NCBI GenBank assembly: GCA_031273075.1 | Contig: JAISSM010000019.1 | Coordinates: 1-35,151 of the forward strand | Source: Rickettsiales bacterium | GTDB taxonomy: Bacteria; Pseudomonadota; Alphaproteobacteria; Rs-D84 | Reading direction: 5' to 3' | Length of the DNA stretch: 35,151 nt | Shown here: in pieces, positions 1,623-11,896 of the stretch | Position numbering within the stretch: the stretch's first letter is position 1 | How the letters are laid out: each line of letters begins with the position of its first letter | Made by a program: the position numbers and the translations under genes | Notes under the pieces: model-generated | Seen by the model: the letters and a program-made list of their open reading frames with translations, nothing else | Told to the model about the DNA's origin: nothing | The model's database searches: none

Positions 1623-3131
1623 TTAGACAAGCCTTCGCGTTTTCGCAAAGAAATCGTTCTCTTCGCAAACCGGCTTTATGTCGACCATTTTCGGCGACGG
1701 GCTTATATTCATATCCGCGATCCTGTCATAGCCGCATATACGCACTATGTCGGAGGTCAATTTTTCCGCTATCGCGTCGTCGACGCGCCAAGGCGGACAG
1801 CTTACCGTCCAAAGTTCGCGGTCGACCGTGATTTCATAACCGAGTTTTTCAAGGATCTCTTTTTGCGTTTTTTCATCGACGTCGAATCCTATTCTTCGTT
1901 TGAAAAATTTCGGGTCGTATTTTATTTTCGGGCCCGTGAATTCCGCCCGGACGCAACTTGCCGCCGAAATTTTTCCGCCGCATTCCTTCATAATGATTTC
2001 CGACGCCAAGGCAAGCGCCTGTGTCGTCATGGTCGGGTCTATGCCGCGCTCAAACCTGTAACTCGAATCCGTCGAAAGGCCCAAACGACGGCGCGTTTTC
2101 CTTATTCCCAGCGGTTCGAAATACGCGGATTCCAAAATTATATTTTCGGTTTTGTCCGTCGTCATTCCGCGCTTGCCCCCCATCACGCCCGCAAGCGCGA
2201 GTATCCCGTCCGCGTCCGTGATCACAAGGTCGTCCGCCGAAAGAATGTGTTCGGCGTCGAAAAGGTCCGTGAATTTTTCGCCGTCCTTCGCGTTCCTGAT
2301 TATAATATCGCCCTTGATTTCGTCCGCGTCGAAGCAATGCATCGGCTGACCTATATCAAAGCAAACATAATTCGTCGCGTCGACCGGCGCGTTCTTCGGA
2401 TTGATTCCGATCGCGGACAGGCGCGATGCGATCTTGTCGCACGACGGCGCGATTTTTATTCCGCGGATTTCAACGAAGTTATAGGTCGGGCATCTTTCCG
2501 GGTTTTTAATAACAATTTTTCGGGATTCGGGATTCGGGATTCGGGATTCGGTTCCCGCCTTCGCGGGAATGACAGGGATTCGGGAGGCGATGAATTTTCC
2601 TATGCCGGTTGCGGACAGATCGCGCGCTATGCCCCGGACGGCCAAATAATCCGGGCGGTTCGCCAAGACCTTCGCATCGAACACGGCGTTCGCGTCGGAC
2701 GCCTTTTCGCCGTTCCACGGTTCGCCCAATTTCGCGTTTTTAAGCTCCATAATCCCGCCGTGATCGTCGCCGGCGCCCAATTCCTTTTCGCTGCACATCA
2801 TTCCGTCGGATTCGAATCCCTTGATTTTTCCGACTTTGATTTCAACGCCCCCGACAACGCATCCCGGACGCGCCAAGGCCGACACAAGTCCGACACGGCA
2901 ATTCGGCGCGCCGCACACGACCTGTCTTATATCCTTTCCGTCATCCACTTTAAGCAGATGCAGATGCGTGTCCGGTATGTCGGAACATTCGACGATTTTC
3001 GCCGCAACGGGTTCGGAAGGCGCGGACAGATTTTCGACTTCAAGCCCTATGCCGGTCAATTTGTCCGCAATCCCGCGCGCCGTCTCCTTTGTGTCCAGAT
3101 AATCCAAAAGCCAATCGTAAGTCCAATTCAT
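1623..3131 (-). CDS. pheT: phenylalanine--tRNA ligase beta subunit, N-terminal fragment (tRNA-binding, B3/4 and B5 domains), ending at an in-frame TAA (1623-1625)
   Basis: ATG at 3129-3131 lies 1 nt after the pheS stop. MNWTYDWLLDYL start and the VVCGAPN / MMCSEKELG tRNA-binding-domain motifs are present. Confidence 0.9.
   Translation of the reverse strand: MNWTYDWLLDYLDTKETARGIADKLTGIGLEVENLSAPSEPVAAKIVECSDIPDTHLHLLKVDDGKDIRQVVCGAPNCRVGLVSALARPGCVVGGVEIKVGKIKGFESDGMMCSEKELGAGDDHGGIMELKNAKLGEPWNGEKASDANAVFDAKVLANRPDYLAVRGIARDLSATGIGKFIASRIPVIPAKAGTESRIPNPESRKIVIKNPERCPTYNFVEIRGIKIAPSCDKIASRLSAIGINPKNAPVDATNYVCFDIGQPMHCFDADEIKGDIIIRNAKDGEKFTDLFDAEHILSADDLVITDADGILALAGVMGGKRGMTTDKTENIILESAYFEPLGIRKTRRRLGLSTDSSYRFERGIDPTMTTQALALASEIIMKECGGKISAASCVRAEFTGPKIKYDPKFFKRRIGFDVDEKTQKEILEKLGYEITVDRELWTVSCPPWRVDDAIAEKLTSDIVRICGYDRIADMNISPSPKMVDIKPVCEENDFFAKTRRLV
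2522..2581 (-). repeat. heptad-flanked palindromic repeat inserted in frame inside pheT
   Basis: (GGGATTC)x4, then hairpin TTCCCGC-CTTC-GCGGGAA, then a fifth GGGATTC. It translates as SRIPVIPAKAGTESRIPNPES. Confidence 0.8.
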
Positions 3132-7716: not shown

Positions 7717-7900
7717 GTCGCGGGGCTTTGCCCCGCGCGCTTATTACTGGATACCGCGGTTAAACCGCGGTATGACAAAGGATTGGATTGCCGCGCCGCC
7801 TATGGCGGCTCGCAATGACGATAAATTAACCCCTATCAAGATTTCCTAAGGCGGTGAAACCGCCAAGGAACTCTGTCCTTCCCCTGTTCCAGGGGAAGGG
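7717..7900. repeat. array of five short GC-rich hairpins (intergenic palindromic repeat cluster)
   Basis: The hairpins are gtcgcgggg-cttt-gccccgcgc, ataccgcgg-ttaaa-ccgcggtat, gccgcc-tat-ggcggc, ggcgg-tgaaa-ccgcc and ccttcccct-gttcc-aggggaagg. Confidence 0.75.
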
Positions 7901-7916
7901 GCCGGCACTCACTTTT

Positions 7917-8774
7917 TTATGTTATCGCGGCGCGGCGGCGGAGTTGTTTCAGCAATTGATCGGCCTGGAACAATGCGCGTTTGTAAATCGCGTTTTGTTT
8001 TATTATATCGTCCAGTTGTCCCCACTCTTTCGTTTTCTTTTTATCGCATATCAAAAATGTCCGCCCCTCCGTCAACGGCGACCACGCAAAGACTTCAAGC
8101 CCTATAAAGTGTTCGCGTACTTCCGGCGCAAGCTCGTACTCCAGGGCATTTATTTTTTGCGGCGCTCCACCGAGTTTTTTCGCCATATTCTCGGCATCGA
8201 TGCACGAGTTCGGTTTTCCCAATTTATCATATATCTCTTTCGGAACGTCTATAAGGCGCAGAAACGTCACGTCCAAGGGCAAACCGTGCGCCCTTTCCAA
8301 ATCCGCCATTTCCATATCCAAATCCGATTCCGAGACAGATATCGACGGAACCAGCGCGCGCATTATCATTATTTGCCACGAAAGCGTCGCGCGCGCATAA
8401 AGCCGCATTTGCGGATTATCCTTGTGTTCTTTTATCGCGGCCGCGACTTCCTTTTCAGACGGTTCTATTTTCATCGACTTGGCGTATTCGAGTTTTATAT
8501 AGTCGTCTATGATCGCGTTTTTCGCCGCGTCGCGATTATTAAGGGCCGGCGGTATTATCTTTGTTCTTTCCGTAATGTCGACGTCGGTTATCGGGTTGCC
8601 GTTCACGGTCGCGACGATCGTCGCCGCCATTGTCAATGAAGAATGAAGAATGAAGAATGAATAAAGAAAAATGAATAAAGCTCCCCCTCGGCGCCAAAGG
8701 CGCCACTCCCCCTCAAGGAGGGGGAGACAGGGGCCGCCCAGAAACCGAAATAAAAAACTTTCTTCATTCTTCAT
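7917..8774 (-). CDS. surA: SurA-like periplasmic chaperone (N-terminal chaperone domain, no obvious PPIase domain); start uncertain (8774 or 8630)
   Basis: ATVNGNPITDVDITERT... resembles the SurA N-terminal domain, and the gene lies directly downstream of lptD as in Proteobacteria. Only the 8774 start provides a signal-peptide-like N-terminus. Confidence 0.6.
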   Translation of the reverse strand: MKNEESFLFRFLGGPCLPLLEGEWRLWRRGGALFIFLYSFFILHSSLTMAATIVATVNGNPITDVDITERTKIIPPALNNRDAAKNAIIDDYIKLEYAKSMKIEPSEKEVAAAIKEHKDNPQMRLYARATLSWQIMIMRALVPSISVSESDLDMEMADLERAHGLPLDVTFLRLIDVPKEIYDKLGKPNSCIDAENMAKKLGGAPQKINALEYELAPEVREHFIGLEVFAWSPLTEGRTFLICDKKKTKEWGQLDDIIKQNAIYKRALFQADQLLKQLRRRAAIT

Positions 8775-8789
8775 TCTTCATTCTTCATT
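8635..8789. mobile_element. MITE-like element with 27-nt heptad terminal inverted repeats around GC hairpins
   Basis: AATGAA(GAATGAA)x3 at 8635-8661 faces (TTCATTC)x3TTCATT at 8763-8789. They flank hairpins ggcgcc-aaa-ggcgcc and ctccccct-caa-ggagggggag. Confidence 0.6.
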
Positions 8790-8792
8790 ATT

Positions 8793-10826
8793 TTACTTTC
8801 CCATTTTTATCGAAAATTTCAATTTGAACGACTGAGAGCCGCGAAAGCTCAATTCTTTGTCAGCATCGTATATTTTGCTCGCATTGTCAACGCTGTATAT
8901 GAATCCGAGCGTATAGCACGGATGTTCGTAATACACCCCCGCGTTGTATCTTTGCGGGGTTTGCTCTTTGAAATTATACACGCCCCAGCCGCGGACCGCC
9001 ATTCTGCCCGTAAGATAAACGCCCGCGCCGACGGTCCCTTCGGATATGTCGTCGCCGCCCCTGGTATAATCGTTGTCCAAAAACTGAACCGCCCATATGT
9101 ATCCGACCGACACATAGTTTTTCCCGCCGACGCGCACGTCCGTTTCCACATGGCGCAGATCGGCTCTTTCCTTGCCGAACCTGGATCTTGACGTAATGGA
9201 AAGCCCGTTCAGCGGATCAAGCCCCACGCGGCCGACCATATCGGACGCGCCGCGTCCAAGGGTATTATATCCGCTGTTGGGATCCGGACCGGAATCCGTG
9301 TCAAAGTCATAGGTTTGGCCTATGAAAATTTCCGCCCCGCGCCCCGCCTCGTCGTACCCGGTCCACATGATCCCATAATCCGCATACGTTCCGTTCACCC
9401 ATTCGTCGTATCCGGAATATCTGTTGTTCGAAAACAGCGACGCGTCGGATAAAATCGCGCCCCTGGAATCAAGATTCGCAAAGTTCTCGTTTCTGGACCG
9501 CCCCAGCGCCGTCACGCGCGCCTTCGGCCTTATGATTTGCGTGAAATCATTCCCGGCGCGGACAAACGGCATTTCCCAATCGACATAGCCGGACGGAAGC
9601 AGGCGCGATTCGTACCCGTCCCACATCCGATCCCTCGCGCTGTAATTATAATAGTAATAATGGTCGCTTCGCGCCGCGGCGCTTAGCGTGAATTTCTGCC
9701 ACGCGAATTCCAGCGGCGCGACCACGCGCCCCTCTCCTATCGCGCGGTTCACGGACCAATCGTTGTCCATATCGCCGATGCGCATCACGTCGCCCATGAA
9801 GCGGCCGTATAGATTTTCAGATATCCCGACCTGATATACGCCGTGGATCTTGGGCAAAATATCGCCGTCCGGAATCTTAGTCCGCCCCCAACCGCTTCTT
9901 AAGTCCTGGAATATGTTCGCGTCCATGGTCGCATAGCCGCGCTCTTCGAACAACTCCAACTTAACGTTCGATTCCAAAAACGGCTGGTCGTCGTAAAACT
10001 CGTATTGCTGAAGGTAAGTTTTGTCGGACGTGCGCTGAATATTCGCCTTGATGCGCGCGTTTTCGCCAAGCTCTATCGCATCGTTGTGGAACAGGTGCCA
10101 TCTGTCAAGCCCCGTTCCCCGCATTTTCGTGTACGACCCGGCCGTGTCGAATTCCGCGCGATCGGCGCGAAGGCGATGCTCTATCCGAACCAGCGGGTTT
10201 TCCCTGGTAAGGTACGTTCCGGTCACCGTCATATCGTGGTATCCGGAAAAATTTATGTAAAGCGGAACGTTTATCCCAGTTCCCGTATTGGTCGCGGAAC
10301 TGAATTCCGGAACAAGCAGGCCGGACCTGTATTTGACAGTCGGGTCCGGCTGAACGACAAGCGGAAGATAAAAAACCGGCACGCCGTACATATCGAACCA
10401 GAAATTATAAAAATACATTTCCTTGGCCGCGGCGTCGTGCGACGCCCCCGTCGCGCGGACCGTCCACGCCGTGACCGTTTCGTCGCAATTATGGCACGCG
10501 GTATAGGTTATATTGTCGGCCTTGGTCAAATCTTCATTTTTCCCGAACGTTTCGGCGGTCATCATCGTCCGTTCGTCCCACTCCATCACGACATTTTTTC
10601 CGCCCGCGGTCGTTTTCGACAGGTGCGCGTCCAAAAGCGTGATTTTCTGTCCGGTTTTTCCGACGATCTCCGTCTTGCCCGACGTTTTAAGGTTGCCCGA
10701 TTTCACGTTGTATTTCAATTTGTCCGCGGAAATTTCCTTGTATTCGACGTCAAGCGACGCCGCGTATGCCGCGGCAATGAAGAATGAAGAATGAAGAATG
10801 AAGAAAGAGCAAAGCAACTTTTTCAT
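8793..10826 (-). CDS. lptD: LPS-assembly outer-membrane protein LptD (OstA)
   Basis: 677 aa with signal peptide MKKLLCSFFILHSSFFIAAAYA, an OstA-like N-terminus and a large beta-barrel region rich in Y/G/aromatic-ended strands. Its ATG overlaps the stop of the upstream permease (ATGA). Confidence 0.88.
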   Translation of the reverse strand: MKKLLCSFFILHSSFFIAAAYAASLDVEYKEISADKLKYNVKSGNLKTSGKTEIVGKTGQKITLLDAHLSKTTAGGKNVVMEWDERTMMTAETFGKNEDLTKADNITYTACHNCDETVTAWTVRATGASHDAAAKEMYFYNFWFDMYGVPVFYLPLVVQPDPTVKYRSGLLVPEFSSATNTGTGINVPLYINFSGYHDMTVTGTYLTRENPLVRIEHRLRADRAEFDTAGSYTKMRGTGLDRWHLFHNDAIELGENARIKANIQRTSDKTYLQQYEFYDDQPFLESNVKLELFEERGYATMDANIFQDLRSGWGRTKIPDGDILPKIHGVYQVGISENLYGRFMGDVMRIGDMDNDWSVNRAIGEGRVVAPLEFAWQKFTLSAAARSDHYYYYNYSARDRMWDGYESRLLPSGYVDWEMPFVRAGNDFTQIIRPKARVTALGRSRNENFANLDSRGAILSDASLFSNNRYSGYDEWVNGTYADYGIMWTGYDEAGRGAEIFIGQTYDFDTDSGPDPNSGYNTLGRGASDMVGRVGLDPLNGLSITSRSRFGKERADLRHVETDVRVGGKNYVSVGYIWAVQFLDNDYTRGGDDISEGTVGAGVYLTGRMAVRGWGVYNFKEQTPQRYNAGVYYEHPCYTLGFIYSVDNASKIYDADKELSFRGSQSFKLKFSIKMGK
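10776..10802. repeat. GAATGAA heptad array inside the lptD signal-peptide codons
   Basis: AATGAA(GAATGAA)x3, identical to 8635-8661. In minus sense it encodes SFFILHSSFFI. Confidence 0.85.
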
Positions 10827-11896
10827 TTTTTACAAAGATACCATGTCAGGGCGGCGATCAAGACCAATTGTCCGGCGCCAAGGCAATACAACTCCGCGAT
10901 TGTGGACGCCGACGCCGAGACCGTCATAAACAACGTTTCGGACGAAATCATGGCGATCGCGGCGGCAAAGCCCGCAAAGCTGGCCCGTCTTCGAAGCGCG
11001 GTCGTTTTAAGAAGGCACGCCATCGCGATAAGAACGAATATCAGGCCCATAAGCGGGGATAAAAACCTTGTCGCGGCCTCCGACACTATCTTGCTTTTCT
11101 GGGGCGGGCGGAAGTAATCGAGCGTTCGGATAAGCTTCATCAACTCGCCCGTCGAGACGCGCCGGGCGCGAAGCAATTCGGATTCTTTGGCGTCGTTCAT
11201 TTCCAGATCCATCTGCGCGCCGTCGAACGTTCCCATCATCACGCCGCTTTTGCCGCCCATTTGAAGCGCGCCCGCGCCCATGACTATGGAAAGGCCGTTC
11301 GGCGTGTTTATCAATTTGCCGTACTCGGACGTTATAAGCCTTTCGTCGCCGGGATTCCGCGCGTCGCGCATGACAAGGCCTATAAGGTCTTTCTGATTCA
11401 CCTGCTCCACATAAATCACGACGCCGTTCGTCATCTGGTTGAACGACGATTCGCGAAGCTTCAAGTGTCCGATGCCGTATCGAAGCTCCCACTGCGCGGA
11501 ATAGAACATATCCTGGGTTTTCGGTATAAGCCAAAGGCTTGCCCCGTAATTCAGGATCATTATCACAATCGCGAACATCAAGGCCGGGCGCCCTATTCTT
11601 ACGGGCGACATTCCGCAGGCGCTTAAAACCGGTATTTCGTTTTGCTCTATCATTTTGCCGTATACGAACATGACGCTTATAAACACCACGAACGGCGTTA
11701 TGATGCCTAAGAGCATCGGGATCGTATAGACCGACATGCCCACGAATCCGCCGATGTCGACCCCGTATTTGATTATCAATTTCATCAAAAGCAATATCTG
11801 AACCATCCACGCAAGGCCGCCCAAGACAAGGCTGAATCCGGCGAACGACGCCCATATTTGACGGGAAAAATATCCGCTTATTATCATAGGGGCCAT
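10823..11896 (-). CDS. LptF/LptG-family LPS export permease (YjgP/YjgQ)
   Basis: Multi-TM protein of about 357 aa with a central periplasmic domain, adjacent to lptD. Start taken at ATG 11896; the track start at 11923 is a TTG. Confidence 0.8.
   Translation of the reverse strand: MAPMIISGYFSRQIWASFAGFSLVLGGLAWMVQILLLMKLIIKYGVDIGGFVGMSVYTIPMLLGIITPFVVFISVMFVYGKMIEQNEIPVLSACGMSPVRIGRPALMFAIVIMILNYGASLWLIPKTQDMFYSAQWELRYGIGHLKLRESSFNQMTNGVVIYVEQVNQKDLIGLVMRDARNPGDERLITSEYGKLINTPNGLSIVMGAGALQMGGKSGVMMGTFDGAQMDLEMNDAKESELLRARRVSTGELMKLIRTLDYFRPPQKSKIVSEAATRFLSPLMGLIFVLIAMACLLKTTALRRRASFAGFAAAIAMISSETLFMTVSASASTIAELYCLGAGQLVLIAALTWYLCKK

Follow-up and report, generated by a model that had tools for sequence, protein, structure and literature searches.

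A palindromic heptad repeat as the probable source of the export signal of a SurA-like chaperone in a termite-gut Rickettsiales bacterium

Introduction

Where does an exported chaperone obtain its signal peptide when the DNA ahead of its mature part is a repeat element? This question is raised by a locus in a 636-kb MAG (72% complete, 52.7% GC) from a termite-gut metagenome, whose proteins are labelled 'Rickettsiales bacterium'. The window, i.e., the whole stretch of DNA that was analysed, comprises 35,151 nucleotides. In it, a surA-like ORF is separated from lptD by a hairpin-forming repeat; according to Pfam, lptD and lptF/G lie upstream of the ORF and an MltA-like gene lies downstream. The original prediction, made from the letters of this stretch, held that the repeat is a MITE-like element which is read through as the N-terminus of the chaperone and which has supplied, or replaced, its export signal. 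The analysis presented here followed up that prediction, and the features of the locus are collected in Table 1.

Structure of the lptD-surA element

The element at 8635-8789 is a 155-base hairpin. Comparison of its heptad arms bore out the predicted inverted termini, which are perfectly complementary over 27 nt (8635-8661 and 8763-8789), and arms extended to 32 nt (8635-8666 and 8758-8789) are still 97% complementary. On the minus strand the order is the lptD stop codon TAA 8795-8793, 3 nt, (AATGAAG)n, a GC-rich centre, (CTTCATT)n and TTGACAATGGCG.... A 21-nt heptad pattern has 8 matches in the window and none in 100 shuffles of it. The A-rich arm carries four ATG codons (8788, 8781, 8774 and 8767), of which only the last two escape the TGA codons of the arm itself. 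In the mRNA sense the element folds with -92 kcal/mol (z = -7.3). A consensus scan of 8300-9100 found no intrinsic terminator, and a reading of the hairpin as such a terminator was dropped for this reason.

Table 1. Features of the lptD-surA locus; positions are those of the window
Feature	Position	Strand	Remark
lptD	8793..10826	(-)	directly upstream of surA, same orientation; Pfam
Solo heptad array in lptD codons 8-17	10776..10805	(-)	SFFILHSSFFI of the LptD signal peptide, MKKLLCSFFILHSSFFIAAAYA followed by A
SurA-like chaperone ORF	7917..8774	(-)	285-aa precursor, ~236-aa mature part, no parvulin domain
A-rich heptad arm, (GAATGAA)4 in mRNA sense	8758..8789	(-)	starts 3 nt past the lptD stop
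Candidate start ATG of the long SurA precursor (MKNEES...)	8772..8774	(-)	third of the four arm ATGs
Alternative 44-codon frame from the fourth arm ATG	8633..8767	(-)	ends at TGA 8635-8633, 2 nt before ATG 8630
Nested 51-nt GC-rich double-hairpin module	8679..8729	(-)	conceptual translation here CLPLLEGEWRLWRRGGA
T-rich heptad arm, (TTCATTC)n	8635..8666	(-)	codes for LYSFFILHSSL, the predicted hydrophobic core of the signal peptide
Predicted c-region and cleavage site T-M-A/A	8622..8633	(-)	cut between 8625 and 8624; includes ATG 8630-8628

The two GC hairpins that had been described between the arms are present, and they can be defined more closely as a separate repeat module (8679-8729), of which ~24 other copies occur in the genome at 90-100% identity and without heptad arms (e.g., C70 343-393 and C39 14189-14245). 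The inner hairpin of this module shows compensatory changes between copies (GGCGCC/GGCGCC, GGCGGC/GCCGCC and GCCGCC/GGCGGC), which indicates that its structure is conserved. Within the module, the CTCCCCCTC stretch has two alternative partners, as GAGGGGGAG occurs twice, and the module is often chained to further modules (AAGTTCCCCTCTATGGAGGGGTGG... and TTTGTCATCCCGCGG...). Two other full-length look-alikes, on C45 and C38, are 76-78% identical to the element; the A arm, the linker and the T arm are common to them and the GC module differs. The element is therefore a composite, namely a heptad palindrome (GAATGAA)4...(TTCATTC)4 whose loop contains a 51-nt GC hairpin module.

This construction bears on the class of the element. 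Terminal inverted repeats, as expected of a MITE, are present, whether counted as 27 perfect nucleotides or as 32 at 97%. However, no shared direct repeat flanks the three full copies (window, C45 and C38) in a visual check for target-site duplications, and no match to Y1_Tnp, DDE_Tnp_1, rve or DDE_3 was found by Pfam in the assembled 72% of the genome. In copy number, the two other full-length elements stand beside parts that are abundant, with 108 matches for the heptad arrays and ~24 copies of the 51-nt module. As neither a duplication nor a transposase of these four families was seen and the build is modular, 'MITE' is the wrong label. It is better classed with the REP/ERIC/RPE hairpin repeats, as a modular one whose arms are tandem heptads. 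Of the overall proposal, an export signal supplied by the repeat arm and a SurA-like fold are supported, and the MITE label is not.

As the element is repetitive, its assembly deserves attention. Independent evidence comes from Logan contigs only, which were examined for four termite-gut runs and which break inside the repeat and drop variants. Those of the source sample cover 7800-8708 and 8764-10803, and the 55 nt between them are unbridged; frame continuity of the surA leader therefore rests on one MAG assembly. The repeat could have been mis-joined, so that the real middle differs, either in the number of modules or in being a plain MKK plus heptad leader, and the position of the gap as well as the high copy number of heptads and modules would allow for this. 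On the other hand, the contig 7800-8708 contains the T arm and then the upstream linker and most of the GC module, with no start codon there, and the contig 8764-10803 has the A arm beginning 3 nt after the lptD stop. Moreover, the adjacency of lptD and surA is conserved in relatives, and two sister loci share the architecture. An assembly artefact is accordingly given only a slim chance.

The lptD-surA element locus had no match in other assemblies, whether by a search for related loci or by an exact junction pattern in metagenome contigs. A separate observation concerns the heptad arrays themselves (8549-8869 and 10689-10902), over which the summed contig depth reaches up to ~3,900 in runs X2-X4. 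These runs are other termite-gut metagenomes, with little (X2) or none (X3 and X4) of the source genome. Together with the finding that no other family genome searched is rich in the unit, this depth points to some other abundant organism, or to the host or a protist, as a carrier of (GAATGAA)n.

The SurA-like protein and its leader

Identification of the protein at the sequence level gave little. Pfam SurA_N_2 and SurA_N_3 match below the cut-off only, no Pfam match to a rotamase (parvulin PPIase) domain was found in the ORF, searches with the ORF in NCBIfam and by phmmer against PDB returned no match, and a profile against PDB was marginal (3rgc at E = 0.28). By contrast with these searches, the predicted structure is informative. 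An AlphaFold (AF2) model built from 41 homologs has a pLDDT of 89.5 and places residues 24-45 as one helix ahead of a SurA-like fold, and the best PDB matches of Foldseek are SurA, the SurA-like Cj1289/PEB4 and PrsA (E = 4e-7, prob 1.0). The protein is thus SurA-like by fold search, on the strength of a modelled structure.

Comparison with orthologs shows what kind of leader is expected at this position. In 23 of 24 family genomes the ortholog lies directly after lptD, in all cases with an N-terminal signal peptide. Among 110 homologs, the pre-sequence is 21 aa long at the median and terminates in A-x-A right before (A)SVVATVNG. In the long form considered here, the T arm together with TMA ends at the same residue as the signal peptides of the orthologs (...LHSSLTMA/ATIVATVNG). 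The best 10-residue hydropathy is 2.57 for this form, close to the homolog median of 2.72, against 1.53 for the short forms. The distal arm had been predicted to encode a hydrophobic stretch in front of an AXA-like TMA-A site, and both this hydropathy and the position of its end agree with the prediction.

The leader was also compared with a set of rules for Sec (SPase I) signal peptides, i.e., a positive n-region, a hydrophobic h-region of 10-15 aa and small residues at -1 and -3. In this rule-based check, RLWRRGGA could be assigned to the n-region and LFIFLYSFFILHSSL to the h-region, with T-M-A/A as the cleavage site. The length is another matter, since Sec leaders usually have about 18-30 aa and the leader here would have 49, with an n-region of 32 aa; the median n-region of the 110 homologs is 3 aa. 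All but one of these homologs have an n-region shorter than 32 aa, and the one proposed here carries a net charge of just +1.

Heptad arrays as signal-peptide cores

The arms of the element belong to a repeat that is dispersed through the genome. Period-7 arrays of at least three exact units number 51 (0 in the shuffle), and no such arrays were found at periods 5 or 8-12. The main units are three, namely GAATGAA (30 arrays), CGGGATT (10) and GACTGTT (5 or more). The coding properties of the first unit depend on the sense in which it is read. In the T-rich sense, (TTCATTC)n is stop-free in every frame, and all three frames give (FILHSSF)n. The A-rich sense contains one TGA and one ATG per 21 nt, and its last two ATGs stay open, as MKNEE... 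or MKK.... Because the element is palindromic, the succession of ATG, polar arm, core and hydrophobic arm can be read in either orientation.

Many of the ~75 arrays are found at the 5' end of long ORFs in the T-rich sense. At least 11 ORFs follow the pattern MKK..FFILHSSFFIA..A.A: their start codon is adjacent to the array, their n-region contains Lys or Arg, and an A-x-A site is present (e.g., MKKLAFFILHSSFFIALALAPARA). Such adjacent-start leaders include those of LptD, BamA (POTRA and Omp85), an OMP_b-brl protein, an SNase and Chlam_PMP-repeat proteins, of which two carry the array. It also serves Slt, an M48 BepA-like protease, a DUF2155 protein and an MltG/YceG membrane anchor, all assigned by Pfam, and a lipoprotein-like leader (..FFILLVSC) is built on it as well. 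Genes with these canonical heptad leaders are mostly A/T-rich upstream of the start and have no recognisable Shine-Dalgarno motif.

Since the same array heads LptD, BamA and ~20 other envelope proteins, the distal arm in front of surA can be recognised as the 'greasy core' on which export signals are routinely built in this genome. We therefore consider, with a probability of roughly 0.8, that the T arm is an h-region supplied by repeat DNA. This agrees with the central proposal, that the export signal comes from a repeat, and adds to it that the unit is species-specific.

The arrays might instead be contingency loci, in which the addition or removal of a single 7-nt unit would change the frame and so turn envelope proteins on or off, as in Neisseria opa. 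In many genes the repeat does separate the start codon from the mature protein, and its unit length of 7 cannot be divided by 3. At the Slt gene (C36 3737-3759, L058), the array of 23 nt is one unit below the modal 30 nt, and the MKKLLLL start is out of frame by exactly one missing unit. However, the arrays are short (3-5 units), at least 11 are in frame, and some stand in the essential genes lptD and bamA, where switching off would be lethal, which argues against an on/off switch. Of all the alternatives weighed in this work, contingency switching appears the least probable.

Several further observations concern the arrays. The Slt start MKKLLLLSSFFILH is canonical in form and lies in the +1 frame relative to the mature enzyme, which may reflect slippage (phase-off), a fresh pseudogene or an assembly error. 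At C35 4181-4210 (L057), a 30-nt TTCATTC array is in frame within a putative multi-pass membrane protein, CdsA-like by motif, suggesting that the repeat is tolerated as an internal hydrophobic segment too. The (CGGGATT)n family has 10 arrays of at least three units, including one in the window (2519-2546) and one of up to 8 units at C57 3663-3718, and is non-hydrophobic when translated. A (GACTGTT)n array at C7 12123-12143 (L074) encodes the signal-peptide core MKKILRLLTVDCLLLTATAAPSHA, so that more than one unit serves as a leader in one genome.

Where SurA translation starts

If the T arm is the h-region, the start codon of the precursor becomes the next question. The surA-like ORF is open through the whole element from ATG 8774-8772, and the encoded N-terminus is identical to the one predicted. 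After this codon, the only ATG, GTG or TTG triplets in frame are TTG 8636-8634 and ATG 8630-8628. The prediction had named ATG 8630 as the sole alternative, devoid of a signal peptide; TTG 8636 has to be added, and the second part is correct for both, as neither start leaves a hydrophobic segment (1.53). With no ATG, GTG or TTG between the arms, an exported SurA needs an arm ATG. From this lack of any other canonical start we infer, at about even odds, that translation begins at ATG 8774 and runs through the element.

The proposed mechanism would consist of initiation at the third ATG of the A arm (8774-8772), followed by translation through the hairpin core. Its product would be a 49-aa Sec signal peptide with a 32-aa n-region ending in RLWRRGGA, the h-region LFIFLYSFFILHSSL and the c-region TMA, and cleavage is predicted at TMA/A. 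In this way, the repeat leader would have replaced an ordinary surA leader of ~21 aa. The start codon is located 18 nt past the lptD stop TAA 8795-8793 and within the 28-bp arm stem. Being locked in this stem, it probably depends for initiation on ribosomes that terminate lptD 18 nt upstream; these could melt the stem and so permit initiation at the arm ATG by translational coupling.

Other leaders of the genome are consistent with such a start, since they form a graded series. It begins with MKK plus array (LptD and BamA), proceeds to an arm ATG with a 13-aa n-region and array (M48 protease), and ends with an arm ATG, a full module and array (SurA and the C38, C45 and C36 proteins). In the sister composites on C38 and C45, the in-frame reading is MKNEER.... 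Six elements lie before exported genes that have no adjacent start; in all six the frame is open from an arm ATG, compared with an open-through ATG in only 4 of 12 control orientations, though these test elements are few and mutually related. It should be noted that openness is cheap in such DNA. Stops are absent from all frames of the T arm, two of three frames find an ATG in the A arm, and the GC module is open in two of three as well, so an open frame says little by itself, and the argument that an open frame equals translation was rejected as a sole argument. The gene for cytoplasmic PlsX provides a chance case of an in-frame open element. Among 19 further ORFs downstream of heptad arrays, Pfam recognised only PlsX, and these ORFs are therefore no clean positive or negative controls. 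Two features of ATG 8774 itself speak against the long form, namely that it has no Shine-Dalgarno sequence and that it is buried in the 28-bp stem. The 32-aa n-region and the unbridged 55 nt of the assembly count against this form as well.

The main competitor is that SurA starts at ATG 8630, or at TTG 8636, without a signal, the long ORF being a by-product of a purely intergenic element; this we regard as rather unlikely. The hairpin might then act as a REP/ERIC-like mRNA stabiliser, attenuator or insulator between lptD and surA, which seems no less doubtful. SurA would in that case be cytoplasmic, as a fresh loss of function, or exported another way, and either outcome is judged improbable to a similar degree. 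Several facts fit the short start. ATG 8630 is outside the stem, the 44-codon frame stops 2 nt ahead of it and might serve as a uORF for coupling, the cheapness of openness and the PlsX case apply here too, and the spacer of the congener G004 has an untranslated heptad hairpin. Nevertheless, every full-length homolog examined carries a signal peptide whose end falls at this same point, and the short product would have no hydrophobic segment in front of a mature part that is intact and has a confident SurA-like fold. In addition, the T arm is placed exactly where the array is the h-region in more than 20 other envelope proteins.

A near-cognate start within the element, such as ATT, or CTG at codon 12, would give a short leader without the hairpin core, in which the T arm would still be translated as the h-region. 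An SD-like GGGGGAG of the GC module stands 8 nt before an in-frame ATT, and the sister elements C14, C36, C38 2546 and C57 have an in-frame TTG or GTG plus Arg just before the T arm, as cases of core-internal starts that are used or usable elsewhere. But ATT and CTG seldom serve as start codons, the leader (M)FLYSFF... would lack a charged n-region, and the SD-like stretch takes part in the base pairing of the GC hairpin. Such a start is quite improbable, and initiation at the arm ATG 8774 is preferred.

Heptad leaders in related genomes

The prediction had suggested comparing surA 5' regions across relatives. The comparison supports it: the signal peptides encoded there, ~21 aa long, reach to the same point as the T arm, and relatives carry other heptads in their leaders. 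The unit of the source genome is largely its own. A 21-nt array, with up to one mismatch allowed, has 108 matches in the source genome and occurs in one of 60 family genomes searched (6 matches), and none was found in the four congeners searched. Instead, the surA leaders or lptD-surA spacers of relatives contain CTTGTCY, CAATTGA, GTTAGTC, TTGTTAA, TTTCACT, CTTTTGC or CTTTATT, often with an inverted A-rich copy upstream. The lptD leaders of relatives contain ATTTGCT x5, CTTTTGC x5, GTCACTY with an upstream inverted arm, CTTATGC or CTTCTTC, and the unit of the CTTTTGC x5 leader is identical to the surA unit of the same genome. In 175 kb of the relatives' loci, 7 is the commonest tandem period. 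The presence of other heptads at the same places indicates that the leaders of orthologous genes, even essential ones, are rewritten lineage by lineage.

Some of these loci resemble the architecture proposed for surA. In the congener G003, the SurA start annotated by NCBI lies within the A-rich arm (MTEKKQETRNKS plus VLVLVLCLL...). For the family relative G015, NCBI places the LptD start (P0025, L098) within the A-rich arm of a palindrome of GTCACTY heptads, and ~30 residues translated from the loop separate this arm from the h-region, which is the same read-through architecture as in surA here. A different arrangement is found in the congener G004, where an untranslated heptad hairpin in the lptD-surA spacer is followed by an ordinary leader.

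Comparison with known repeat systems

Two known systems share individual features with the leaders described here. The STRR heptanucleotide repeats of filamentous cyanobacteria are dispersed tandem 7-nt repeats with lineage-specific units, and the arrays of this genome are like them in both respects. To our knowledge, STRRs have been described as intergenic and not as coding for signal peptides. Autotransporters with an ESPR have Sec signal peptides of ~50 aa, in which a long N-terminal extension precedes the normal n/h/c part. The predicted SurA leader is similar in its length of ~50 aa and in its long N-terminal extension. Whereas the ESPR extension is a conserved protein motif, the one here would be translated repeat DNA without conservation at the protein level.

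Among the closest parallels are Rickettsia palindromic elements (RPEs; Ogata et al. 2000, as reviewed in PMC10969869), which are translated in frame in Rickettsia genes. The likeness consists in a palindromic repeat of ~150 bp in a reduced alphaproteobacterial genome, placed in frame in unrelated genes and translated. RPEs insert inside folded domains and are without tandem-heptad arms. The element described here differs from RPEs in that it stands at the 5' end, its arms are heptad arrays, one arm probably serves as an h-region and the core is an exchangeable module.

In Neisseria opa, CTCTT coding repeats lie in the leader-peptide region (PMC3960869). The arrays here are like them in being pyrimidine-rich short tandem repeats whose unit is not a multiple of 3 and which encode the hydrophobic portion of outer-membrane protein leaders. 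Arrays in opa are long and very variable, and they switch the members of one paralogous family on and off; unlike these, the present arrays, known from assembled contigs, are short, occur in many unrelated and essential genes and often have an inverted partner. Hairpin repeats of the REP, ERIC and Correia type and MITEs are small, non-autonomous, high-copy palindromic repeats (PMC10969869). The element resembles them in that they are often found between operon genes and are strongly structured as RNA (PMC10969869). It differs from REP, ERIC and MITEs in its tandem-heptad arms and modular build, and no target-site duplication was seen and no transposase or RAYT was found. In the literature searched on heptanucleotide or palindromic repeats and signal peptides, no description of heptad-coded signal peptides was found.

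Biological implications

A broader interpretation can be proposed, although it is speculative. Heptad palindromes may be self-spreading 'signal-peptide cassettes' that can replace the 5' ends of envelope genes and leave the genes functional, and that may have done this repeatedly in this bacterial family. Antisense codons are opposite in hydropathy, so that an A-rich/T-rich hairpin reads as an ATG with a charged n-region followed by a stop-free h-region either way. If this proposal were right, which is doubtful, each species would have homogenised the leaders of its secretome, including those of the essential LptD, BamA and SurA, to its own unit. The spread would then have proceeded by copying or by a process of gene conversion, a step that is equally tentative. 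In addition, stems that sequester start codons could make expression of the whole secretome dependent on translation upstream or on a shared antisense partner.

The locus also has practical consequences. Gene callers and tools of the SignalP type will assign wrong starts or wrong classes to genes with heptad leaders. At the same time, such genes are natural test cases for n-regions that are very long and structured, and for start codons embedded in long stems.

The reading of the T arm as an h-region bears on models of how genes tolerate palindromic repeats, in that it extends the RPE paradigm to a functional module. It implies that a 7-nt repeat, selfish or born of slippage, can replace the leaders of essential factors of outer-membrane biogenesis, and that Sec signals need little information. 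It also implies that the leaders of whole secretomes can be rewritten within the life of a species.
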